DNA from: Clostridiaceae bacterium
Lineage (GTDB): Bacteria; Bacillota; Clostridia; Saccharofermentanales; Saccharofermentanaceae
Reading direction: 5' to 3'
Length of the DNA: 24,000 nucleotides
NCBI GenBank assembly: GCA_012838315.1
Contig: DUPM01000025.1
Coordinates: 1 to 24,000, forward strand
Within the stretch, counting starts at the first letter, position 1; every line of letters begins with the position of its first letter. Made by a program: the position numbers and the translations under genes. The notes beneath the pieces are model-generated. The model saw only the letters and a program-made list of their open reading frames with translations, made no database searches and had not been told where the DNA came from. Positions 1-23,012 of this stretch are shown here, piece by piece.

Positions 1-130
1 ATAACGAGGGGCTTTAATATGCAAATATTCATAATTTCTATGGCCGAATTAGCGATTTACGCTCAAAGACACAGAAACAAATAACCAAACAGTCGAACTC
101 AAAATTGCGAGGCGCTCTTAGGCAAAACTA

Positions 131-1729
131 TCATGGTGCAACCGTCGTAGCCTCTGTCGTAGCCTCAGTTGTTGCTTCAGTCGTAGCTTCAGTCGTAGCT
201 TCAGTCGTAGCCTCTGTCGTAGCCTCTGTTGGTGTAGTCGTTTCCTCAGTTGGTTCTGTTTCGCTCGGTAATGTTTCTGACGTCGTTTCTTCGGATTCAG
301 ACGATTCTGTAGACGCTGTTGTCGTTTCCTCAGTTGGTTCTGTATCGCTCGGCAAGGTTTCCTCCACAGTCGTTGCTTGCGTTGCGGGTGGTGAAGTTGT
401 TGCTTCTGTCTGCGGAATGGGTGTCGGGTCAGCTTCCAGTTCTGGCTGGAATTCATCAATAGTAGGATCAAGCTCAGAAAGATATGATGTCACAACAAAT
501 CCCTCTATGCCGTTATCCAAAGCAACTTTGCAGAAATACTCATTAAACTCCAAAATTGTAACGGCTTCTCCGCGCATTAGGTTGTAAAGAATCTGACTTT
601 CCAAAGCGGATGAAGCAAATACAGCATTGTTATCTTGTGTGCTGTACATTACCATGAAAAACACTTCAGATTCGTCGACGGTGCCTGTGATTATGGGCTG
701 GTTATCCTTGTCAATCTTTCCGATATTAAATAAAATCATCATTCCGAGACGACCTATTCCAAAAGTAACAAGCAGAATAATTATGGGTATAAATATATTG
801 CGGAGAATTCGATTCTTTCTTTTTCTTGCCATTAACTCATCATCTCCCTTTGCTGAGATCGTATCGGAAGTGGCAGATTTCTCGGATATATTGTTATCAG
901 CATATGCAATAGGTAGGCCTACGAACGGCGACACCACTTCAAAAGAAATTGAAACGATCGTCAATCCATATTTTGCCTGCTTCTCCTGAGCGAGTTCAAT
1001 TAATTTAAGTGTCTTCTTCTCAATCGCAAAATCTTCAGATACAATTGCTGTCATCTCAGCGGGTAATAGGTTGTGAGATATACCGGTACCGAATAAATAT
1101 ATCTCATCACCTTGCATTAGTTTAAAGTTAATCTTTAAGTCGGGGGTCACTTGACCATCTTGTTGGGATTTTCCTAGGTATTGTGTGAGATCGTTGCGTT
1201 CCGGGTGATTGATTTCGAGGTCTTTAGGCACCGATCCCATTTGTACATATCGGTGGGCAATTGTATGATCTTCAGTTAACGCAATTAATCGTCCTTTGCG
1301 ATAAAGAAAGGCCTTGGTATTACCAATATGAAAAATACGAACGACATCTCCGAAAACCACTAAAGCGGTCATAGACATCTTGATAGTAGCACCATTTTGA
1401 GTCGCTGAAGTGACCACCACCTCATTCAGCTCTCTAGCACACGATTCAGCATACACCTCGAAATCAGAATTAGCCGAATGCATCTGTGCCTGAGTAATTG
1501 AATGAAATTTAGCTATTACGGATTGTAATGTAGTCGCGGCGATATTGTCCGGTCCTTGCGCAGAAAAAACGCAAAATACCTGAACATCATTATGAGACGT
1601 CGCTTTCTTAGCAAATACTGTAGAATACTCTTGCGGCTGTCGGTAAAGGCCTTGAATGTATATATTCTCTTGGTTAGAACCGGATAATTTATTAGTATGG
1701 CAGATTGTAGCTGCACTGGTATGACTCAT
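131..1729 (-). CDS. Membrane-anchored PP2C-fold protein (predicted catalytically degenerate). It has an N-terminal cytoplasmic PP2C-like domain, one TM helix, an extracellular SH3b-like domain and a C-terminal Thr/Glu/Pro-rich repeat tail.
   Basis: ORF 131..1744. I prefer the ATG at 1729 (MSHTS...), which is preceded by GGGGAG plus a 7-nt spacer; the track start at 1744 is a TTG. The protein aligns block by block with PrpC/Stp-type PP2C: HIGNTKAFLY vs HIGDSRxYL, LTEDHT vs TEDHS, HPERNDLTQYLG vs HPRKNVLTKALG, GDEIYLFGTGI vs GDxLLLCSDGL. TM helix: ILRNIFIPIIILLVTFGIGRLGMMILF (about nt 728..811). SH3b-like pattern: RGEAVTILEF..KVALDNGIEGFVVTSYLS (about nt 470..667). The tail is TEATT/TEPTEETTT repeats. 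Confidence 0.8.
   Translation of the reverse strand: MSHTSAATICHTNKLSGSNQENIYIQGLYRQPQEYSTVFAKKATSHNDVQVFCVFSAQGPDNIAATTLQSVIAKFHSITQAQMHSANSDFEVYAESCARELNEVVVTSATQNGATIKMSMTALVVFGDVVRIFHIGNTKAFLYRKGRLIALTEDHTIAHRYVQMGSVPKDLEINHPERNDLTQYLGKSQQDGQVTPDLKINFKLMQGDEIYLFGTGISHNLLPAEMTAIVSEDFAIEKKTLKLIELAQEKQAKYGLTIVSISFEVVSPFVGLPIAYADNNISEKSATSDTISAKGDDELMARKRKNRILRNIFIPIIILLVTFGIGRLGMMILFNIGKIDKDNQPIITGTVDESEVFFMVMYSTQDNNAVFASSALESQILYNLMRGEAVTILEFNEYFCKVALDNGIEGFVVTSYLSELDPTIDEFQPELEADPTPIPQTEATTSPPATQATTVEETLPSDTEPTEETTTASTESSESEETTSETLPSETEPTEETTTPTEATTEATTEATTEATTEATTEATTEATTVAP
144..239 (-). repeat. In-frame 12-bp tandem repeat of about 7 good copies plus 1 degenerate copy, encoding (TEAT)n at the C-terminus of the PP2C-like protein.
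   Basis: Plus-strand units are gtcgtagcctct / gtcgtagcctca / gttgttgcttca / gtcgtagcttca x2 / gtcgtagcctct x2 / gttggtgtagtc, head to tail from 144. The period of 12 bp equals 4 codons. Confidence 0.9.
237..352 (-). repeat. Two copies of a 32-bp unit, 84 bp apart, encoding the ETLPS(D/E)TEPTEETTT segment.
   Basis: gtcgtttcctcagttggttctgtttcgctcgg at 237..268 versus gtcgtttcctcagttggttctgtatcgctcgg at 321..352 (31/32 identical). Confidence 0.85.
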
Positions 1730-1731
1730 AA

Positions 1732-2880
1732 TTATTCTCCCCAAATAAATTGATGTAGTTCAGGAATTTGCCTGTTCCAATCTACAATCATCATCCAAGG
1801 ATTCTGTTGCACCGTAAATAATCCATCTGCTGGAACACGATATTCCGTTCGATTATCAAGGATATCAAGAACCGAGGAACCGACACGAATGAGATCAATT
1901 GATGTCATGTTAGTCTCAAACATGCCGGCCATATCTTCAACGAGTGACATTTGTTGAAGTGTTGAATATGACGATACTTTGGTCATTAAAGCAAACGCCA
2001 GTGTGCGCTGTCGGCCACTTCTCACATAATCCGAGTCTAACTTACGAATACGAGACCAAGCAACGGCCTGAATGCCATCAAGAGTTTGATAACCGCCATG
2101 CGTCAAATAGGGCACATTCTTATTTAGTAGTTGATTCTGTTCTTCAATAGACATATTGGCATACTTAGCTTCACCTGCAGTAATCTCCAACTCGATGCCG
2201 CCGACTGCATCAATGACTTTTGTAGAGCTACTAAAATCAAGCATGACAAAACGCTGAATATCCAATCCGAAATTCTCATTAATAGTATTAATTAATAAAC
2301 CAACCCCACCATAAGTATACGAGTGATTTAGCTTATCTGTTTTCGATCGGCCTTCAATGGTCACACCGGTATCCCTCATCAATGAGATGAGTTTAATCGT
2401 GTCTGTTTTTTTATCAATAGAAACTATCATAATCGCGTCCGCTCGACTCTGAACTTCTCCGGACCCACGTGCGTCAATACCAAAGACAAGAATATTCTCG
2501 ACATCGCGATCTTTTTGTTTTACTTTCTTTATCGGATGGTCAGGGTCGACGTACACACTGGTATGTCCGCCATCTTGCCAAGATGATGTAGTGTCACCGC
2601 TCATGTCGAAACTATCTAGCGAGCCGATTTCTATTGGCTCGTAATCTTCTGCCTTGACAAATGGTGTGATTACATGTCTAAATCCATTAGAAATATTTAG
2701 TATATACGAGAATATGCCGGCGCCTAAACCAAAGGCCCCGATAACAATATAAAGTAAAGATTTAAGTAAAACGCCAACCGCCCTTTTACCAAGAGATTTC
2801 TGGGGCGCAGGTGTCATTGTAGCAGTCGAAGACCGACCTTGAGTCGCAGATAACCTATTACTATTTACACGATTTTTCAA
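1732..2880 (-). CDS. LytR-CpsA-Psr (LCP) family cell-wall glycopolymer ligase / 'transcriptional attenuator', with an N-terminal TM anchor.
   Basis: LCP hallmarks: ILVFGIDARG....SRADAIMIVSID....IKLISLMRDT, plus GGVGLLINTINENFGLDIQRFVMLDF and AVGGIELEI. TM helix: VGVLLKSLLYIVIGAFGLGAGIFSYIL. The start is a TTG at 2880, preceded by GAGAGGTG and a 7-nt spacer. Confidence 0.9.
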   Translation of the reverse strand: MKNRVNSNRLSATQGRSSTATMTPAPQKSLGKRAVGVLLKSLLYIVIGAFGLGAGIFSYILNISNGFRHVITPFVKAEDYEPIEIGSLDSFDMSGDTTSSWQDGGHTSVYVDPDHPIKKVKQKDRDVENILVFGIDARGSGEVQSRADAIMIVSIDKKTDTIKLISLMRDTGVTIEGRSKTDKLNHSYTYGGVGLLINTINENFGLDIQRFVMLDFSSSTKVIDAVGGIELEITAGEAKYANMSIEEQNQLLNKNVPYLTHGGYQTLDGIQAVAWSRIRKLDSDYVRSGRQRTLAFALMTKVSSYSTLQQMSLVEDMAGMFETNMTSIDLIRVGSSVLDILDNRTEYRVPADGLFTVQQNPWMMIVDWNRQIPELHQFIWGE

Positions 2881-3050: not shown

Positions 3051-4247
3051 ATGAAAATATATACTAAGAAACTCCAATCTTTGCTCGTTTTTTTACTCGT
3101 AATTCTTTCTGCATTTACGATTGCTTCATGCGGTAAAAAACCGAATGAGACGGCTTCGACTTCTATCGTAGAATCATCCGCAACGATACCGGAGACGCTT
3201 CAAGAGACGACAGTGCCGGCTGAGACAACAGTACTGGAGACGAGACCTACGAAATCAGAAATCGGCGAGAACGGACTCGCTTATAACCCGTTAACCGGAG
3301 AATATTCCACATCAATAGACAACATTGGCAAAAGATCTGTCAGTATTGTTGTGAACAATCATCAATCCGCTTTGCCACAGCGCGGTCTTAGTGCTGCTGA
3401 AATAATATACGAGTACGAGACTGAGGGCGGCCAAACTCGGTTGTTGGCTCTATTCACTGATATTTCGACAGTTCCGGAAATCGGCTCAATTCGAAGCGCA
3501 CGCACAGTGAGCACAGATCTTGCTGCCACTACTCAATCATTGTTTGTTCATTTTGGGTTCAATCCACGCGTACCTGACTATCTTGCCGCGAATAAATTAG
3601 ATCATATCGACGGGAATAATTACTGCGCATCATCCGGATCTTCTGTGAATGGTCAGATTGAACTTTCATCGGGACGCTTTTTCTGGAGAGATAACACATG
3701 GAAATCTCAGCGTTCATCTGAGCATACGGCCGTGACAAACGGAACACAATTGCTAAGAGCTATGGAACATCTTGGAATCACTCAAGAAGGTAGTACTCCG
3801 GAAATGTTCTATTTTGGAGATACATCTAAATCTGCAATTGCAAACGGTAAAGATTGTAATTCAATGAACGTGTATTTTTCTGCCACGAACGATGATGCCT
3901 TATTTGAATATGATCCTGAGATTAAGCTTTATTCAAAAAGCCAGTACAATGGCAAGGCGCAGATTGACGAAACCACCGGCGAACGCATAAAGTTCAAAAA
4001 CGTATTTGTGTTTTTCACCGACATCAAACCTCATGGAGACTCTACAGTAAATGCAAATTTCCATCTTGGCGGAACGGGATACTACGTCAGCGAAGGAAAA
4101 GCAATTGACATCACTTGGACAAAGGACACCCCAAACTCATTGTTTGTCGTCAAAGACGCTTCGGGAGAAGAAATTACTGTAAACCCGGGGAAATCGTATA
4201 TTTGTATTGTAAGATCAACCAATGCATCAAAGACCACAATTTCCTAG
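3051..4247 (+). CDS. Lipoprotein of the DUF3048 (YerB-like) family.
   Basis: Signal peptide plus lipobox (LVILSAFTIASC|GK). A Thr/Glu-rich linker follows. The DUF3048-like core is RSVSIVVNNHQSALPQRGLSAAEIIYEYETEGGQTRLLALF, as recalled from YerB-type proteins. Confidence 0.8.
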   Translation: MKIYTKKLQSLLVFLLVILSAFTIASCGKKPNETASTSIVESSATIPETLQETTVPAETTVLETRPTKSEIGENGLAYNPLTGEYSTSIDNIGKRSVSIVVNNHQSALPQRGLSAAEIIYEYETEGGQTRLLALFTDISTVPEIGSIRSARTVSTDLAATTQSLFVHFGFNPRVPDYLAANKLDHIDGNNYCASSGSSVNGQIELSSGRFFWRDNTWKSQRSSEHTAVTNGTQLLRAMEHLGITQEGSTPEMFYFGDTSKSAIANGKDCNSMNVYFSATNDDALFEYDPEIKLYSKSQYNGKAQIDETTGERIKFKNVFVFFTDIKPHGDSTVNANFHLGGTGYYVSEGKAIDITWTKDTPNSLFVVKDASGEEITVNPGKSYICIVRSTNASKTTIS

Positions 4248-4264: not shown

Positions 4265-4825
4265 CTACTCCACTAAAAGCGGCTCTTTATGCCGCTTTTT
4301 TCTTATGATGTTGGTTATGAATATAATGATACGAATGAAAATGAGCACCAGCATACCACTTGCGACATCAATTAGCACATCGAAGAATCTCCCGTTTCTT
4401 CCGGGAACAAACAATTGATGGTATTCGTCGATGACTGCGATAAGAACCGTAATCCAAATTGAGAATGAAGCATTCATATCAAATCCAGGCTTTATATCCT
4501 TGTCAGTAACGACGATAATTCTTCGAGAAAGAAGAATTCTCGAAGATGAAGCAAACGCAAGATATGAAAGAAGTGTTAGTATAGAGAATTCCGCAAAATG
4601 TGCAAACTTACGCACTAGGTATAACGGAAACTCTCTGCCGGTCCAAGACAATAATAACTTACCAATTTCTTCGCTTCTTGTGGCTGAATCGATTCCGCTC
4701 TCTGATGAAAACATGAAAATGACCATCATCCAAAAAATAACGCAAACCCAAAGGGTTATCGCTAATAATAAATACGTTAATCGAATTTTCTTTTTTTTCT
4801 CTTCCAATGTGTCCCACCCATTCAA
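4265..4825 (-). CDS. VanZ-like family membrane protein.
   Basis: Four predicted TM segments and VanZ-type motifs: RKFAHFAEFSILTLL and DEYHQLFVPGRNGRFFDVLIDVASG. The start is uncertain: the TTG at 4825 has no convincing SD and lies 2 nt after the smpB stop. Confidence 0.7.
   Translation of the reverse strand: MNGWDTLEEKKKKIRLTYLLLAITLWVCVIFWMMVIFMFSSESGIDSATRSEEIGKLLLSWTGREFPLYLVRKFAHFAEFSILTLLSYLAFASSSRILLSRRIIVVTDKDIKPGFDMNASFSIWITVLIAVIDEYHQLFVPGRNGRFFDVLIDVASGMLVLIFIRIIIFITNIIRKKRHKEPLLVE
4275..4301. terminator. Bidirectional rho-independent terminator between convergent genes.
   Basis: AAAAGCGGC-tctttat-GCCGCTTTTTT. The 6-bp stem is AGCGGC/GCCGCT (G+C-rich, extendable by flanking A-T pairs), with an A-tract on one side and a T-tract on the other. 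It lies 28 nt after the stop at 4247 and inside the last codons of the vanZ-like ORF. Confidence 0.7.
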
Positions 4826-9045: not shown

Positions 9046-10641
9046 TTACACATCCGCGCTCATATCTGACAGAATTCTAAAAATTTGATGTTCACTTTCA
9101 TCAATGATACGAATCAATCGTAACACATTTAAACCTCGTTGCGAAAAATTGCGAACCAAAACCGAACGATCGTATTTTGATTTTCCGTAGAGTTCAGACG
9201 TGCAACTCATTGGTCGCAATATAAGACGAGCCATCTCTTCTTCCTGCCTCTGATTCTTCGTTACGTGAAAGGTGTTAGTCCCATTCGCGCAAGCCTTACA
9301 ACTTGGTGCATTTTTCCCAACAGGACAAAAGTGCGACAACATCCACTCAATCGGTCCATAGACTTGGATAAGAACCGGAATACCGGAGTGATCCAGATGA
9401 TAATTTAGAAGCTTTTCCAGCGAAGAATTATCAACTTCATGTGAAAACTCAATGGCATCCGGCTGTTTGTCTAAGATAACAGATAGCGAAGCAATATTTG
9501 TAATATTTGCATGGTGAGAAATAATATACGAAGTCCCATCGGTTGTCGGTGCATCCGTAATGTATCCCAAAAATTGATCACCATGACTTCTTGTTTTTGT
9601 ATTCATTTCGATTCGCATATCTCTGTCTTGCAAAAAACGAGATGACGAATTAAGTCTGATTGCGAAAGAATAGCCGGGATGATTCTTGAAAAAGTCATCT
9701 ATGCGTTTGTAAGTGTCGCCGCTCAGAATGTCAAATGCTGAAAATACATAAAACATTGTAGACGGTTCGATATCAGTAATACCATCGTTTATGGAGTGTA
9801 AATTTATGTATTCAACCGCAATTTTATAAGAGCACATATGACCATTTGTAACATCGGAACCGGACAACAAATTTTTCGGTGCGCACAGAAAATCAGATGT
9901 GTTGACACGAGTATTAGACTTATGACGTTTAAACGATGCAACATAAAGCGTCTCAAAAGATTGAAGCATAGTTCGACGGATATGATTTAATAAAGAAACC
10001 GGAGCTATAGGTAAATCACCTGAGAAATCCACTTCTGTGACACGAAAAGAAGTCCCGCCGGTCTTACTCATCTGCGAACGAATTCGATCTATGGATAAAG
10101 CACCGCCCGAATATGCAAGGTCAACAGAAAAATCTTTGCGAAGAGCGATTGTGTGGTCCGATTCAGATCGGACGGACACGATGATTTCAGAATCTCCCTG
10201 ATGGTATATCAATTGAAAAGATACAGGCAAACAAGAGGCTAAATCCATTGACACGGCTCTTTTTCGCGCAACAAGATAGAGCGAATATGATGGTTTTACA
10301 AGACGCAGCTGGTCCGGGTGTGCGCCATATAGACCCCACTTTGCGAATTGATCCGCAGGGGTCGGATGGTCCAATTTGCCCACTGGAAACGTGATGATGT
10401 CATTATTACCGTCACGAACCGCAACCGTATCGCCCACGTTGATTTGAAGCGATACTAACTCAGACGAGACAAACACCACTCCCTTATGGGGATGAACATC
10501 CACAATGCGACCGAAATAGACGCCGTAGTGGCTGACAAAATCACCACTATGTAAAAGACTTCCACGGTGGTCCTCATAATAATGCGACGAAAAATCGCCA
10601 CCTCGATTGAAGCTTAAGAGTAATTCGGTTTCATAATCCAT
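9046..10641 (-). CDS. C-terminal portion of a long-form U32 family protein (the post-barrel FNRGG/beta-barrel region, a DUF3656-like middle, and a Cys-rich C-terminal module), encoded as a separate ORF.
   Basis: It begins ...LLLSFNRGGDFSSHYY..SHYGVYFGRIVDV...GDTVAVRD, matching the segment that follows the catalytic barrel in long U32 proteins as I recall them (FNRGGFT.GY ... H.G..iG.V). The C-terminus, EWMLSHFCPVG...CKAC...LRLIRIIDESE, resembles the C-terminal module of those proteins. The start is uncertain: the ATG at 10641 has a weak SD, or a GTG at 10650 could be used. The track start at 10785 overlaps metY by 56 nt. Confidence 0.6.
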   Translation of the reverse strand: MDYETELLLSFNRGGDFSSHYYEDHRGSLLHSGDFVSHYGVYFGRIVDVHPHKGVVFVSSELVSLQINVGDTVAVRDGNNDIITFPVGKLDHPTPADQFAKWGLYGAHPDQLRLVKPSYSLYLVARKRAVSMDLASCLPVSFQLIYHQGDSEIIVSVRSESDHTIALRKDFSVDLAYSGGALSIDRIRSQMSKTGGTSFRVTEVDFSGDLPIAPVSLLNHIRRTMLQSFETLYVASFKRHKSNTRVNTSDFLCAPKNLLSGSDVTNGHMCSYKIAVEYINLHSINDGITDIEPSTMFYVFSAFDILSGDTYKRIDDFFKNHPGYSFAIRLNSSSRFLQDRDMRIEMNTKTRSHGDQFLGYITDAPTTDGTSYIISHHANITNIASLSVILDKQPDAIEFSHEVDNSSLEKLLNYHLDHSGIPVLIQVYGPIEWMLSHFCPVGKNAPSCKACANGTNTFHVTKNQRQEEEMARLILRPMSCTSELYGKSKYDRSVLVRNFSQRGLNVLRLIRIIDESEHQIFRILSDMSADV

Positions 10642-10729
10642 TGAAGTCACTATTCCACTGTCCTCGTCTTGGCGCTTCGATAAGACGGATGCCTTAAGAA
10701 AGCACAAGTAATGCTGTGCCTTTATCGTT

Positions 10730-12010
10730 TTAAATCTGAGACAACGCTTGATCAATATCTTGAATAATGTCTTTGACGCTTTCAATACCCACTGACAAAC
10801 GAATCATGTCTGAGCTGACACCGGCAATTGCCAAACCCTCTTCGGACAACTGACGATGCGTGTGACTTGCCGGATGCAAGACACAAGTTCTCGCATCGCA
10901 GACATGCGTCGCGATTGATGCAAGTGAGAGTGAATCCATAAATGTGACCGCAGCATCTCTGCCACCCTTGACACCAAAACTTAAAATTCCGGGAACACCA
11001 TACTTCAAATATTTGCGTGACAATGCGTGCTGAGAATCGCCTTCAAGCCCGGGATACTTGACCCAAGACACTTTAGGGTGATTATTGAGGTAGTTTGCAA
11101 CTTCAAGCGCATTCTGAGCATGCCGAGGCACACGAAGATGAAGCGTTTCAAGTCCAATGTTCAATAGAAACGCATTCATTGGTGCAGGAGATGATCCAAG
11201 ATCTCTCATTAATTGCGCTGTCGCCTTGGTCAGAAATGCAACTTTGCCGAAATCCTTGGTGTAAATCACGCCATGATATGAGTCATCCGGCTGTGTCAAT
11301 CCGCGAAAACGCTCCGGATGGGATGCCCAATCAAAACGACCGCTATCTACGATGCATCCACCGACACTCGTCGCGTGACCATCCATATACTTGGTCGTTG
11401 AGTGAATGACAATATCTGCACCCCACTCAATCGGCTTACACAATATGGGTGTTGGAAAAGTATTGTCGACAAAAAGAGGCAGTCCACAAGCATGTGCCGC
11501 ATTGGCAAAGGACTCGATATCTAAAACATTAAGCGCAGGATTTGCAACAGTCTCTCCGTATATCAATTTGGTATTTGGTCGGACTGCAGCTTTGATTGTC
11601 TCTTCATCTGAATCCGGCGGAATAAATGTCACTGATACACCCATTTTCTTGAGTGTTACAGAAAAGAGATTGAACGTTCCACCGTATAAAGCCGAGGCAC
11701 TTACGAAATGGTCTCCGGAGTCACAGATATTCATGATGGCGATAAATATGGCCGCCTGACCGGATGAAGTCAGCATGCCTCCTGATCCACCCTCGAGTGC
11801 TGCAATCTTGGCCGCTACAGCATCGCAAGTCGGATTGGCCAAACGAGTATAAAAATACCCGGGCTCTTGCAGAGCGAAAAGACGTCCCATCTGCTCTGTT
11901 GAATCATATTTGAAAGTTGTACTTTGGGTAATTGGCAAAACGCGCGGCTCACCATTGCCCGGATGATAACCAGCATGCAAACAATTGGTTTCAATACTGT
12001 AATCACTCAT
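10730..12010 (-). CDS. metY: O-acetylhomoserine sulfhydrylase / aminocarboxypropyltransferase (Cys/Met-metabolism PLP-dependent enzyme family).
   Basis: TNCLHAGY, YTRLANPT, the PLP-lysine motif HSTTKYMDGHATSVGG, and a C-terminal IRLSVGIE. The start is reassigned to the ATG at 12010 (MSDYS...), preceded by GAGGTG and a 7-nt spacer. Confidence 0.9.
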   Translation of the reverse strand: MSDYSIETNCLHAGYHPGNGEPRVLPITQSTTFKYDSTEQMGRLFALQEPGYFYTRLANPTCDAVAAKIAALEGGSGGMLTSSGQAAIFIAIMNICDSGDHFVSASALYGGTFNLFSVTLKKMGVSVTFIPPDSDEETIKAAVRPNTKLIYGETVANPALNVLDIESFANAAHACGLPLFVDNTFPTPILCKPIEWGADIVIHSTTKYMDGHATSVGGCIVDSGRFDWASHPERFRGLTQPDDSYHGVIYTKDFGKVAFLTKATAQLMRDLGSSPAPMNAFLLNIGLETLHLRVPRHAQNALEVANYLNNHPKVSWVKYPGLEGDSQHALSRKYLKYGVPGILSFGVKGGRDAAVTFMDSLSLASIATHVCDARTCVLHPASHTHRQLSEEGLAIAGVSSDMIRLSVGIESVKDIIQDIDQALSQI

Positions 12011-12060
12011 ATATATCACCTCGCTGACAAGTATTTATGGAATTTATGAATTATATCATA

Positions 12061-12891
12061 TTACGCGTTCACAGACGTCTCCGCAAGAATCTGATTGAGT
12101 AATCTTCGATATATTGATACAACGTTTCGAACATATTCCGGGCTTCGCATTCGGCCTTCAATCTTGAGTGAGTCAACGCCCATATGAACTAATTCGCCCA
12201 AGAAATGATAAAGACTTCGATCCTTAATCGAAAATACTGCGCCTTCAGATATTTTCCCAGATTGCCCCAAGATAGCATAATTCTCGCGACAAGGTTGCGC
12301 ACAATCACCGCGATTCCCGCTTCTCATTCCACCTTTGTTCATCGCGCTGAATAAACAAATACCCGAACAACTGACGCAATGTGCACCATGGACAAACACT
12401 TCCGTACCGATACTATATTCTTGAGATAACTTAATGGATGCCTTTATATCTTCTCGAGAGAACTCACGCGGAAGTACCCAGCGAGAAATACCCAATTGCT
12501 GAGCCAAATGAAACGAATCCTTGTTGTGGACGTTCATCTGTGTGCTGGCATGGATTTGAAGGTCTGGAAAAGACTCACTAACAAGCGCGCATAACCCTTT
12601 ATCTTGAATAATGACAGCATCAATGCCTTCGCGATATGCCTTGAGAACCGTATCCATCGCCTCATCAAATTCGTCGTCATGTATCAGCGTGTTAATCGCG
12701 AGATACGCTTTCACACCACGAGCATGACAATAATCCGAGACCATTCCTATTTGGTCTATCGAAAAATTATCTGCTTTGGCACGTGCGCTAAACTGCGACA
12801 CGCCAAAGTACACTGCATCAGCACCGGCAATAAGTGCTGACTGAAGCGCAAGCTCAGAACCGGCAGGTGCAAGAAGTTCAGTTGTCATCAT
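12061..12891 (-). CDS. U32 family protein, catalytic (beta/alpha) barrel half (peptidase U32 / RlhA-TrhP-UbiU-type Fe-S hydroxylase family).
   Basis: ELLAPAGS...GADAVYFG; the U32 signature EVFVHGAHCVSCSGICLFS....RSGNRGDCAQPCR (nt 12286..12402); VDSLKIEGRMRSPEYV. The start ATGATG at 12891/12888 overlaps the zapA-like stop (12878..12880). Confidence 0.85.
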   Translation of the reverse strand: MMTTELLAPAGSELALQSALIAGADAVYFGVSQFSARAKADNFSIDQIGMVSDYCHARGVKAYLAINTLIHDDEFDEAMDTVLKAYREGIDAVIIQDKGLCALVSESFPDLQIHASTQMNVHNKDSFHLAQQLGISRWVLPREFSREDIKASIKLSQEYSIGTEVFVHGAHCVSCSGICLFSAMNKGGMRSGNRGDCAQPCRENYAILGQSGKISEGAVFSIKDRSLYHFLGELVHMGVDSLKIEGRMRSPEYVRNVVSIYRRLLNQILAETSVNA

Positions 12892-13522
12892 TGATCTCAT
12901 CTTCTGAATCATTGTCTTCGGAGAAGCGAAAAACAAGCGACTCTAAAGGTAACGGCTCAATCTTGCTTAATGCTTCTGCGTCTTCTCTGGACTTGGAATT
13001 GTGTTCAATATGGTCCTTAAGACGAAGAATTTCTTTTTTCAGTTCCCAATTAATTTCGCGAATCTGAGCATAATCTGCTTTTAGGTTATCGATTTCACTT
13101 TGGAATCGACTCTGCAAGTCAGTCATCGTAAGCCGTTTATGTTCAGACTGATTCCATTCATCAATCGCGTTGATTAATGCCAAGACAAGTACGTTCGACA
13201 TGTGAAATCCCGGATGTGAATCGCTGATACTTTCTATCATTCGATTGGCCTGGTCGGCAATCATTTGAACATATGATTCTTGGTCGGGATCAGATACAGA
13301 TATTTTATGCTGCATTCCGGCAATATAAACGTCAATTTTGAAGGAATTCGGCTTATCTGAAGAAGGTTTAGAGGCTCGCTTATTCTTATACCGTTGTCGA
13401 TAGTTCACAATCTCTTTCGTTGAATCCTGCTCCGGTGTCTCTTTGGCCTTCTGAGGTTTGGATTTCTTCGCGGACTCGGAGTATTGCTTAAACAAACTGC
13501 CGGTATTACTGTGATATTCCAT
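12878..13522 (-). CDS. zapA: ZapA-like cell-division protein, extended form (basic N-terminal region, ZapA core, coiled coil, acidic tail).
   Basis: Core: KIDVYIAGMQHKISVSDPDQESYVQMIADQANRMIESI....SNVLVLALINAIDEW, which fits the ZapA pattern. RBS is GGAGGAGG. At 214 aa it is about twice the length of a typical ZapA. Confidence 0.65.
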   Translation of the reverse strand: MEYHSNTGSLFKQYSESAKKSKPQKAKETPEQDSTKEIVNYRQRYKNKRASKPSSDKPNSFKIDVYIAGMQHKISVSDPDQESYVQMIADQANRMIESISDSHPGFHMSNVLVLALINAIDEWNQSEHKRLTMTDLQSRFQSEIDNLKADYAQIREINWELKKEILRLKDHIEHNSKSREDAEALSKIEPLPLESLVFRFSEDNDSEDEINDDN

Positions 13523-21344: not shown

Positions 21345-23012
21345 TCAAAACTGCATCGATTGTTCTTCGATTTTTTCAATATAGTCAAACAACGACATAC
21401 TGTCTTCCAAGTCAATCGAAATATCTTTCGGATCAATCATTGAAATAGAGCATTCGAAGTCAATAATATTATTTTCACTGTAGCCGTCATCTATGCGAAG
21501 TTTACCATCTTTAAACGTCGTCTCAGATTTGCCGTCGGTCAAAGCACCCGTCACTTCTATTACAAAGCCGTTCTCGCCTCCAAAAGACAAAACAGCTTCA
21601 AAGTTATCGCCCATTTTATCCTTAGTATCCCACTCCATTTCAAAAGTCGCGCTTAAATACTCTTCTTTTCGTTCTCCATCGATGAATACTTCAATTTCTC
21701 TTTTAAAAACACCTCGTTCAAAAGACTGCTCCCAATCCATGCCTAGCTCAACTTCTTCGCCTTCTGCGCTCAGCGTTAGGATGGCGGAGATGTCGTCGGT
21801 TGGGTTATTCTTGCCACCGAGCAGCATTTCAAATTCGATTGCAAGATCTCCACTTTCACCTACCATGGACAACTCAAATTCATCCACGGAAATTATTCGA
21901 ACAAAATCATTCCTGTCAACATAGTAGGTGATGATGATGTCTCCCTTTATCTTGATTCCACTGAACACATCAAAAGCACTGTCAAAGGCCTCTTGACTGG
22001 TCTCGAGTTCGTATCCCTGATACATGTAACCCATACTGTCGAAAAACCACTGCTTATATGCACCCAACGCATCCTGCAAATAATCATTTGCGTCGTCTTC
22101 TGAAATCACGTAAGACATCGCATCCAGTTTATATCTTTTGCCATTTATCTTTTCAGTAACCGATTTTCCATGAGAAAATTCTGCAAAATCCTCTAAGAAC
22201 TTTGCCTCTCGATAATACGCCGCAACCTCATCCAAATTCTTTCCCCCAGCCTCGGATTTTCCAAAAAACATATCCAAAGCTTCGTCGATATAATCTGACG
22301 GCAATGACGGCTCCGTCCCAAGTTCCTCAATATCATCAGCAAATGTATCAGGATCTATGGTAAGAAACGTCGCATCATTAAATAATTCCGGAAATGAAAT
22401 AGCAATTAGCTCTCGCGAAATATACATCAAATTGTCATCATAGACCTGAGTACCATTATCAAAAAGCATTTCGAAAAGCGCCTTCTCCGCCTCGGCATCA
22501 TATAAGACAGATATATCCGCACCAACACCTTCCGATTCAACAGAAAACTCGTACTCAACCGCTTGATCCGCATATTTACTCATGTCAATTAATTGCATAT
22601 CGCTTTTGTCAGAAAAAGTTCTGCCAAGCGACACCTGTAAATATCTCTCCGGATTAACTAACTTCAGAAACTTATAGCGCAAAATAATCCCAAGGCCGAC
22701 GATTAATGCAACGAAAATGACAATTGCTATCACAGCAATGAAACCTTTATTCTCAGATTTATTCTTTCTCGAAGGATCTGCCACGGCGTGATTCGAAATC
22801 TTTTCAGCATCGCCTTCAGTCGTCGAATTATCAACAGAAACTGGACTAATCGGTACGAAAACCGTATTTTCATCCTGTTCCAAAGTCTCATTATTCATAA
22901 TAACTTCATCGGAATTATCTTGATCCGTGTCCAAAGCAATCAACTTCTCGCCGCACGATTCGCAATAAGTCGCATCCGTAGAATTTTCAAAATTACATTT
23001 CGAACAAATCAT
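21345..23012 (-). CDS. Zinc-ribbon membrane protein of unknown function (cytoplasmic CxxC..CxxC ribbon, one TM helix, and a roughly 440-aa acidic extracytoplasmic domain).
   Basis: MICSKCNFENSTDATYCESCGEKL. TM helix: GFIAVIAIVIFVALIVGLGIILRY. I do not recognise any catalytic motif in the remainder. RBS is GGGGGG plus a 5-nt spacer before the ATG at 23012. Confidence 0.75.
   Translation of the reverse strand: MICSKCNFENSTDATYCESCGEKLIALDTDQDNSDEVIMNNETLEQDENTVFVPISPVSVDNSTTEGDAEKISNHAVADPSRKNKSENKGFIAVIAIVIFVALIVGLGIILRYKFLKLVNPERYLQVSLGRTFSDKSDMQLIDMSKYADQAVEYEFSVESEGVGADISVLYDAEAEKALFEMLFDNGTQVYDDNLMYISRELIAISFPELFNDATFLTIDPDTFADDIEELGTEPSLPSDYIDEALDMFFGKSEAGGKNLDEVAAYYREAKFLEDFAEFSHGKSVTEKINGKRYKLDAMSYVISEDDANDYLQDALGAYKQWFFDSMGYMYQGYELETSQEAFDSAFDVFSGIKIKGDIIITYYVDRNDFVRIISVDEFELSMVGESGDLAIEFEMLLGGKNNPTDDISAILTLSAEGEEVELGMDWEQSFERGVFKREIEVFIDGERKEEYLSATFEMEWDTKDKMGDNFEAVLSFGGENGFVIEVTGALTDGKSETTFKDGKLRIDDGYSENNIIDFECSISMIDPKDISIDLEDSMSLFDYIEKIEEQSMQF

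Follow-up and report, generated by a model that had tools for sequence, protein, structure and literature searches.

A conserved predicted pseudophosphatase of the PP2C fold with an SH3b-like ectodomain, encoded next to LCP ligase genes in Clostridia

The DNA analyzed here, called the window below, comprises positions 1 to 24,000 of contig DUPM01000025.1 (assembly GCA_012838315.1) from a Clostridiaceae bacterium of the family Saccharofermentanaceae. Close to one of its ends two co-oriented genes adjoin each other on the reverse strand, namely a gene for a LytR-CpsA-Psr (LCP) glycopolymer ligase and, directly downstream of it, a gene for a bitopic membrane protein in which a PP2C-fold domain with an apparently lost catalytic metal site is joined to an SH3b-like ectodomain and a long low-complexity tail (Table 1). 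We refer to the latter gene and its homologs as the pseudo-PP2C family. The initial annotation, which was made from the letters of the DNA, had described an intact reading frame of 532 amino acids (aa) beginning 2 nucleotides (nt) past the stop of an LCP-family ligase gene, and both statements stand. The mechanical open reading frame (ORF) spans 131..1744 of the reverse strand without interruption, and we place the true start at the ATG at 1729, since the N-terminus MS(K/H)T is common to 120 of the 120 homologs listed and fixes the start in the alignment. A Shine-Dalgarno-like GGAG lies 8 nt 5' of this ATG, within the final codons of the LCP gene. The junction sequence GGGGAGAATAAttATG consists of the LCP stop codon, two bases and the pseudo-PP2C ATG (in the window, GGA GAA TAA tt ATG), so that the two coding regions are 2 nt apart.

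The product of the upstream gene is recognized by Pfam LytR_cpsA_psr (PF03816; 3.6e-33, 115 bits, model positions 1-149 of 150) and by TIGR00350 (3.3e-27, 95.6 bits, above the cutoff of 62.3), and an N-terminal transmembrane (TM) segment is visible when the N-termini of the LCP proteins are aligned. The pseudo-PP2C gene is translationally coupled to this ligase gene. Judged solely from the 2-nt junction, the two genes would be expected to share a promoter; promoter and terminator scans returned the same counts as in shuffled sequence.

Table 1. Features of the pseudo-PP2C locus, of its surroundings and of related loci. Positions are those of the window unless another locus is named, and residues are those of the 532-aa protein.
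Feature	Position (nt)	Strand	Residues (aa)	Remarks and basis
Pseudo-PP2C/SH3b gene, bitopic membrane protein	131..1729	-	1-532	Stop codon 131-133; intact ORF, family alignment, ribosome-binding site
PP2C-fold domain, predicted cytoplasmic	935..1729	-	1-265	Without catalytic metal ligands; NCBIfam, PDB, hhalign, AlphaFold2, Foldseek
Juxtamembrane linker	800..934	-	266-310	Predicted disordered, poorly conserved; ends in basic RKRKNR
Single TM helix, hydrophobic core	725..799	-	311-335	Hydropathy scan
SH3b-like domain, predicted extracellular	470..661	-	357-420	Pfam SH3_3, AlphaFold2/Foldseek
Acidic Thr/Ser/Pro-rich low-complexity C-terminal tail	134..469	-	421-532	Opens with conserved DPT...DPTP motif
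12-nt tandem repeat encoding the TEAT repeats of the tail	144..226			6.9 copies; Tandem Repeats Finder score 117
Codon of Ser16, in place of the phosphate-binding Arg	1682-1684	-	16	Arg lost
R..NEDN to S..NQEN	1667-1669 (Glu21 codon)	-	N19-Q20-E21-N22	Arg to Ser16; Glu to Gln20; Asp to Glu21
DGMGGE to SAQGPD	1562-1564 (Ser56 codon)	-	56-61	Asp to Ser56; the Glu/His position five residues on is Asp61
GDS to GNT	1319-1321 (Asn137 codon)	-	136-138	Asp to Asn137
SDG to GTG	1085-1087 (Thr215 codon)	-	214-216	Asp to Thr215
KDN(I/V)T to KYGLT	968-970 (Tyr254 codon)	-	K253-Y254-G255-L256-T257	Asp to Tyr254; Asn to Gly255
LCP stop / pseudo-PP2C start junction	1730..1745	-		GGGGAGAATAAtt before ATG; sequence reading
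LCP (LytR-CpsA-Psr) glycopolymer ligase gene	1732..2880	-		Co-oriented, directly upstream; 5' limit is a mechanical TTG ORF start, true start uncertain
DUF3048 lipoprotein gene	3051..4247	+		Divergent from the LCP operon; Pfam DUF3048, DUF3048_C
VanZ-family membrane protein gene	4265-4825	-		Flanked by smpB and the DUF3048/LCP cluster; synteny shared by many related loci; envelope-related
DUF3656/collagenase-type gene	9046-10785	-		Flanks the next gene
Cys/Met-metabolism pyridoxal phosphate enzyme gene	10730-12019	-
U32 peptidase gene	12061-12936	-		Flanks the preceding gene
LCP-PP2C pair with intact PP2C, loci L082/L083	4916-7416
LCP-PP2C pair with intact PP2C, locus L166	3813-6437
LCP-PP2C pair with intact PP2C, locus L167	3843-6485
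LCP-PP2C pair with intact PP2C, locus L168	3917-6443

The N-terminal domain of the window protein escapes the general Pfam models, as PP2C, PP2C_2 and SpoIIE give no match to it at E<=1, and PP2C matches just one of 51 relatives (E 0.0075). Scans of the Pfam and NCBIfam libraries found no model dedicated to the family. The NCBIfam model Stp1_PP2C_phos matches aa 76-260 at 2.2e-22 (79.7 bits, against an equivalog cutoff of 230 bits). Searches of the PDB with phmmer retrieved Stp1 of Streptococcus agalactiae (2pk0) at 5.5e-14 and tPphA at about 1e-11, and the phmmer and profile searches together also retrieved Staphylococcus aureus Stp1, PstP and MspP. An hhalign comparison of the family with S. 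aureus Stp1 covers aa 9-261 with a probability of 99 and an E-value of 7.7e-17; the Stp1 reference in this comparison came from the PDB search, and a Bacillus subtilis PrpC sequence served there as query and in the comparison as a second alignment row only. An AlphaFold2 (AF2) model built on 51 family sequences has predicted local distance difference test (pLDDT) values of 85-95 across aa 1-265, and Foldseek superimposes it on PstP, tPphA and Stp1 with target-normalized TM-scores of 0.82-0.88. The prior assignment of the N-terminal ~260 aa to the PrpC/Stp-type PP2C phosphatases is thus borne out by profile, sequence and predicted structure. Within the fold the PP2C flap region (aa 150-195) is nearly invariant in the family.

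A HMMER scan of 1.84 billion representative sequences yielded 23 at E<=1e-30, followed by a sharp drop, and 10,579 at E<=1e-3; beyond the tight family of 23 representatives lies a continuum of ordinary PP2Cs. The nearest of these share 22-28% identity across the whole domain and are recognized by Pfam as PP2C. They form a clostridial subfamily with the signatures G..R..NEDN(F/L)Y, (C/F)DGMGGE, (I/L)GDSR, CSDGLT and GGKDN(I/V)T, and have in common with the window protein an insert between strands 2 and 3. We mapped the motifs against the 54 closest full-length relatives, of which 51 possess the phosphate-binding Arg and all five Asp residues, and followed the same columns through 81 species-level sequences of the pseudo-PP2C family.

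In active PPM phosphatases the bridging water of the binuclear center attacks the phosphate, and the M2 metal sets the rate-limiting step (PMC12002173). The DGxGG, xDG and DN motifs supply Asp ligands of the binuclear M1/M2 center, and GDS supplies that of M3. In the window protein all three M2 ligands and the M3 Asp of the GDS motif are non-acidic. Across the family positions 56, 137, 215 and 254 are acidic in none of the 81 sequences: position 56 is Ser in all of them, 137 is Asn, Ile or Val, 215 is Leu, Thr, Val or Ile with three rare exceptions, and 254 is Ser, Ala, Tyr, Phe or Gly apart from one Thr. The phosphate-binding Arg is missing in 79 of the 81. The first motif has changed in another way, in that its Asp is an invariant Glu21 (81 of 81), which retains a carboxylate, next to Gln20 in place of Glu, with Ser16 in place of the Arg. 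With four ligand positions and the Arg lost, the binuclear Mn/Mg site should be unable to form, and the non-acidic nature of all three M2 ligands makes the absence of canonical phosphatase activity a strong prediction, though still a prediction. The domain, homologous to active phosphatases and devoid of residues essential for their catalysis, is on these sequence grounds a PPM-type pseudophosphatase.

The initial annotation had likewise read the scaffold as conserved and the active site as not, naming a replacement for each metal-binding Asp. Its replacements in the DGMGG, GDS and SDG motifs agree with ours (Ser56, Asn137 and Thr215). Its first and last registers (NED to QEN and DN to GL) are each off by one and are rejected in favor of NEDN to NQEN and (K)DN(I/V)T to KYGLT, which the alignment of 54 relatives gives. 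As to acidic ligands that might lie at the metal site in a shifted register, Glu21 does occupy the first Asp position and the other four positions are non-acidic.

The loss of the catalytic site has not been accompanied by decay of the gene. We found 169 homologs of the window protein, and 114 species-level genomes of the GTDB collection encode a relative, in Saccharofermentans, Mageeibacillus and "Ruminococcaceae/Clostridiales" metagenome-assembled genomes from rumen, gut and digesters. In the best 80 loci, which we examined, the ORF is always uninterrupted, 74 being complete and 6 ending at a contig edge, with no frameshifts. The PP2C-like domain is the most conserved part of the protein, with a mean pairwise identity of 0.66 as compared to 0.45 for the SH3b domain, 0.44 for the TM region and 0.35 for the linker (aa 266-305). 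The median ratio of nonsynonymous to synonymous substitution rates (dN/dS) shows the same gradient, being 0.039 for the dead PP2C-like domain versus 0.18 for the SH3b domain and 0.18 for linker plus TM region; these Nei-Gojobori estimates come from 279 pairs with dS<2, many of them near saturation, which makes the absolute values rough, and the least saturated pair has a dN/dS of 0.032 at a dS of 0.46. In 51 sequences that are 29-59% identical to the window protein (except for one near-duplicate at 99%), 39 columns are invariant, and several of these lie at or beside the former active site (Gln20, Glu21, Asn22, Ser56, Gly59, Asp61, Gly136, Thr138, Gly214, Gly216 and Gly255). Variation at the former ligand positions is among hydrophobic residues for 137 and 215 and among small and aromatic ones (S/A/Y/F/G) for 254. 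Invariant neighbors around drifting ligand positions indicate that selection continues to act on the pocket, though no longer as a site for metal. Neighbor-joining (NJ) trees recover the family as a monophyletic group in all of 100 bootstraps. It is a conserved pseudophosphatase under purifying selection, as had been suspected at the outset from the window alone, and all 81 orthologs have the loss at the ligand positions in common.

The rest of the polypeptide places this domain at the membrane. The basic RKRKNR stretch precedes the hydrophobic core, and from this we deduce that the N-terminus is cytoplasmic; AF2 predicts one long helix over aa 297-339 and assigns a pLDDT <50 to aa 269-296 of the linker. 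Beyond the membrane, the window protein scores slightly below the Pfam SH3_3 cutoff (1.4e-5, 25.7 bits, cutoff 27), and 45 of 51 relatives match this model at E<=0.01, the best at 3e-9. Profile matches to nuclear magnetic resonance (NMR) structures of SH3b domains were obtained at about 3e-3. A separate AF2 model of the ectodomain reaches a pLDDT of ~90 in its core, and its top Foldseek matches are the SH3b domains of 3npf, 6biq, 4krt, 2krs, 2kt8 and 9ovi, with weak E-values of ~1e-3, as expected for a domain of only ~60 residues. The crystal structures among them (3npf, 6biq, 4krt, 9ovi) superimpose with a root-mean-square deviation of 1.3-2.1 A over ~63 columns, and the NMR structures of Clostridium perfringens SH3 domains at higher values. 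The matches include NlpC/P60 enzymes, a phage endolysin and a Bacillus anthracis wall protein. By analogy with its domain type, the ectodomain probably binds peptidoglycan. The tail that follows is 53% T/S/P and 26% D/E without any K/R in the window protein (pLDDT <50), and across the family it has a median length of 114 aa with 47% T/S/P, 20% D/E and 1% K/R. No sortase signal was found in the protein sequence. The topology of cytoplasmic PP2C-like domain, one TM helix, SH3b domain and low-complexity tail that had been proposed for this protein is upheld by hydropathy, AF2 and Foldseek alike. The 12-nt repeat within the tail region may let tail length differ between strains. It also gives rise to a mechanical antisense ORF (105-587, forward strand; VVASVVAS..., 160 aa), which is almost certainly not a gene.

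The association with LCP is widespread. In 62 of the 80 loci the gene immediately upstream codes for an LCP ligase, and in 57 of these 62 the pseudo-PP2C start is at most 8 nt from the LCP stop or overlaps it. A widely syntenic block reads CorA - hydrolase - TsaD - SmpB - VanZ - DUF3048 (opposite strand) - LCP - pseudo-PP2C. Even in the most divergent member (P0140, 30% identity) the gene is paired with LCP, here overlapping it by 8 nt, and is followed downstream by a convergent aspartokinase gene, HAD, EF-P and NusB. Among the loci that lack an adjacent LCP gene, 12 retain the aspartokinase-side neighborhood, where the flank is long enough, and have a glutamate-dehydrogenase-like gene upstream instead. 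Five of the other six (L049, L051, L059, L070, L072) have DUF3048 directly upstream on the same strand, and in the sixth (L065) it is on the same strand further upstream, with other ORFs in between. This pattern, including the state of P0140, shows that the LCP pairing is ancestral for the pseudo-PP2C family and was secondarily lost in some lineages. The statement of the initial annotation that the window holds no kinase gene was confirmed by motif and domain searches: kinase motifs (HRDxKxxN, PASTA-like) occur neither in the window nor in the 80 loci, and kinase, FHA and STAS genes are absent from the window and, up to a distance of 8 kb, from the 80 loci. The sole DG[MLVI]GG match in the same window and loci is a chance one within a 1261-aa PurL-like ORF.

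Catalytically intact relatives extend this picture. Many members of the NEDN/DGMGGE subfamily are membrane-bound, either through a TM helix at ~280-310 followed by Big_2 domains or through a C-terminal tail anchor. The best-scoring active proteins against the hidden Markov model of the pseudo-PP2C family (135-140 bits) are of the type of P0145, tail-anchored proteins of ~470-495 aa that retain the Arg and all five Asp. For P0145 and its homologs P0278 (69% identity), P0280 (40%) and P0284 (37%), an LCP gene ends 4-15 nt before the PP2C gene, in a conserved locus with FtsH, MurE (opposite strand), LCP, PP2C, two convergent phosphoribosyl pyrophosphate (PRPP) synthetases, EngB and ComEC. Live enzymes thus also follow an LCP gene, and the LCP-PP2C pair comes in an active as well as a dead version; we found no earlier description in the literature of an LCP-PP2C operon with an active enzyme. 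As the intact relatives are LCP-paired, the module probably originated as a genuine phospho-signaling device. The initial annotation took the protein not to be a phosphatase partner of a PASTA kinase, yet it may be linked to a kinase encoded elsewhere. LCP linkage as a general property of the active subfamily was rejected, because only the P0145/P0280 clade has it; in the wider tail-anchored group, 80 metagenome loci, mostly from termite gut and soil, showed no LCP neighbor at all.

Other members of the subfamily have different associations. The close active relatives P0142 and P0147 end type VII secretion loci, after an FHA-containing EssC, YukD and WXG100 (L169 1-5828; L170; L171 1-6206), a position that suggests dedicated phospho-regulation of type VII secretion in these Clostridia. 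Further members (P0170, P0180, P0182) have differently degenerate motifs, such as NSHN, SEGFG, GNT and CSSTF, and to judge by these they may be independent pseudophosphatase lineages.

Taken together, the translational coupling and the ancestral pairing make us lean toward the proposal that the bitopic pseudophosphatase serves the LCP enzyme as a non-catalytic partner or regulator in the attachment of wall glycopolymers. Sequence and fold show that its N-terminal domain descends from the clostridial membrane-anchored PP2C subfamily. The fold and the flap region are retained; the phosphate-binding Arg, the M2/M3 Asp ligands and the bridging DGxGG Asp are lost, so that the binuclear Mn/Mg center can no longer be assembled. 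The strongest constraint in the protein falls on this dead domain, and several polar residues lining its former active site (Gln20, Glu21, Asn22, Ser56, Asp61, Thr138) are invariant; a binding role seems most likely, and the domain would act through a partner rather than through catalysis. On the outer face the SH3b domain would dock on peptidoglycan and the acidic tail of ~110 residues would reach into the wall, as the domain type suggests. The protein could thereby position or regulate, together with the LCP enzyme, the attachment of glycopolymers to peptidoglycan, and might connect this process to cytoplasmic Ser/Thr phospho-signaling.

Several observations weigh against this proposal. The operon membership demonstrates co-expression and not physical interaction, and the cytoplasmic tails of the paired LCP proteins are short, basic and not conserved, which leaves a docking motif there without support. 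The gene is also retained in 18 of the 80 loci where LCP is not its neighbor, and can thus persist in the absence of the linkage. The NJ tree does not make the LCP-linked active clade the sister of the dead family: as sister, this clade alone appeared in 0 of 100 bootstraps, other active sequences in 61 and a mixed group in 23. Convergence could for this reason explain why both are linked to LCP. Finally, Glu21, which keeps a carboxylate where the first ligand was, and Asp61, five residues past Ser56, may form a non-canonical single-metal or polar site.

The main rival is that the protein is a decoy or regulator in phospho-signaling which binds a Ser/Thr kinase, an active PP2C paralog or phosphoproteins independently of LCP, the operon reflecting co-expression only. 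Pseudophosphatases of the PP2C fold are commonly binders or adaptors, such as RssB and TAB1, and the near-invariant flap (aa 150-195), the loci in which the gene is kept without LCP and the close active relatives in type VII secretion loci with FHA-EssC, which imply that partner specificity is flexible in the subfamily, can all be counted for it. We nevertheless regard it as rather unlikely, given that neither the Arg nor any metal-mediated contact to phosphate is left, which makes canonical phosphopeptide binding improbable, that the neighborhoods are free of kinase, FHA and STAS genes, and that the LCP pairing is both ancestral and tight.

Less likely still is that the protein remains an enzyme, a non-canonical hydrolase or transferase working with one metal or none in a pocket remodeled around Glu21, Asn22, Ser56, Asp61 and Thr138. 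These residues are invariant in 81-121 sequences, the dN/dS of 0.039 is as low as that of many enzymes, and Glu21 keeps its carboxylate at a ligand position; we consider the idea improbable all the same in view of the three non-acidic M2 ligands, the lost Arg and the variation of 137 and 215 among hydrophobics and of 254 among S/A/Y/F/G. A PPM-fold enzyme able to function in the absence of a binuclear site is not known to us. TAB1 and PHLPP2, which retain one metal at M2, are inactive all the same (PMC12002173).

We doubt to a similar degree that the Thr/Ser-rich tail is a substrate for glycosylation or decoration by the co-encoded LCP enzyme, with the cytoplasmic domain a mere anchor. LCP enzymes can modify a protein, as LcpA of Actinomyces oris acts on GspA (PMC6381275), the genes are translationally coupled, and it is the composition of the tail, rich in T/S/P with scarcely any K/R, and not its sequence that is conserved. 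This reading, however, leaves the strongest constraint, that on the cytoplasmic dead domain, unexplained and finds no sortase signal in the sequence; moreover, those active relatives that are LCP-linked have a tail anchor and hardly any ectodomain, which makes the LCP link independent of an extracellular tail. Decay of a functionless phosphatase gene, to which the lost catalytic residues and the failure of the Pfam PP2C models might point, is refuted by the intact 532-aa ORF, the related ORFs that are complete or cut by contig ends only, the low dN/dS and the 39 invariant columns.

Returning to the LCP-partner proposal, we put forward a broader version more tentatively, as a conjecture with perhaps the lesser part of the odds in its favor. 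LCP and a membrane PP2C or PP2C-like protein might constitute an unrecognized two-gene envelope module of Clostridia that connects phospho-signaling to glycopolymer attachment, in which the phosphatase turned into a dead sensor or scaffold in Saccharofermentans and Mageeibacillus. In such a module the Gln20/Glu21/Asn22/Ser56/Asp61/Thr138 pocket would bind a ligand or partner and the acquired SH3b domain would read or tether peptidoglycan, so that LCP might be controlled from both sides of the membrane.

Among characterized proteins, PstP of Mycobacterium tuberculosis (1txo, 2cm1) is one of the best structural matches (TM-score 0.88). It agrees with the window protein in architecture and orientation, its cytoplasmic N-terminal PP2C domain being connected through a juxtamembrane linker and one TM helix to an extracellular domain (PMC3052367). 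It likewise has a role in the control of the cell wall. PstP, however, is an enzyme that depends on Mn2+ and has three metal sites; in the window protein the four direct ligand Asp residues and the Arg are replaced, the ectodomain is an SH3b domain with an acidic T/S/P tail and the gene is paired with LCP. The PstP gene sits in an operon with kinase, FtsW and penicillin-binding protein genes. The PstP-like layout is shared by catalytically intact clostridial bitopic PP2Cs with Big_2 ectodomains. The soluble Stp1, PrpC and IreP of Firmicutes are homologous to the window protein across the whole domain; unlike them it has no catalytic residues, is membrane-anchored and has no adjacent PASTA kinase gene. 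The uncharacterized P0145, P0278, P0280 and P0284 proteins belong to the same NEDN/DGMGGE subfamily, have the strand 2-3 insert and are LCP-linked like the window family, but differ in their intact Arg and five Asp, the TM helix at the extreme C-terminus, the missing ectodomain and another neighborhood (FtsH, MurE, PRPP synthetases).

Escherichia coli RssB, an accepted precedent in bacteria, has been termed a pseudophosphatase because it is without some of the Mn-binding Asp residues (PMC6546054). Its C-terminal domain is a bacterial PP2C fold without Mn-binding aspartates that works by protein binding (PMC6546054), as we propose here; yet RssB is a soluble response-regulator fusion for the delivery of sigma-S to ClpXP, with no membrane anchor, ectodomain or envelope gene context, and it was not among the 16 or 20 PDB sequence matches at E<=0.01 or the top 50 fold matches listed. 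TAB1 and PHLPP2 resemble the window protein in combining a preserved PP2C fold with a degraded binuclear center and in being conserved and functional without phosphatase activity (PMC12002173). They differ in that they still bind one metal at M2, where all three ligands of the window protein are non-acidic, and their domain context and biology are unrelated.

Our literature searches found no paper describing a pseudo-PP2C/SH3b family and none that connects LCP enzymes to a PP2C encoded in the same operon. Some databases label the window family "serine/threonine protein phosphatase PrpC", which is probably wrong. Few bacterial pseudophosphatases have been described, the C-terminal domain of RssB being the example that we found in the literature. 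Here an entire family, in at least 114 species-level genomes of Clostridia from rumen, gut and digester, has a PP2C domain that is predicted to lack catalysis and is still its most constrained part. For the regulation and positioning of LCP enzymes in Gram-positive wall assembly, a conserved, translationally coupled partner is a concrete candidate regulator. As active and dead versions of the partner occur in related lineages, their comparison could separate the catalytic from the scaffolding roles of membrane PP2Cs.

The remaining genes of the window are of the housekeeping kind (SmpB, TsaD, CorA, dUTPase, U32 peptidases, ZapA, KsgA, PurL, HtpG and an aminotransferase). A 555-aa ORF at 21345-23012 of the reverse strand has no Pfam match at E<=1e-5. 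At 9046-12936, on the same strand, the mechanical ORF limits overlap. We found nothing functional in the literature on DUF3048. Its gene stands beside LCP in most loci, and the N-terminal linker of its product is likewise rich in T/E/S/P.

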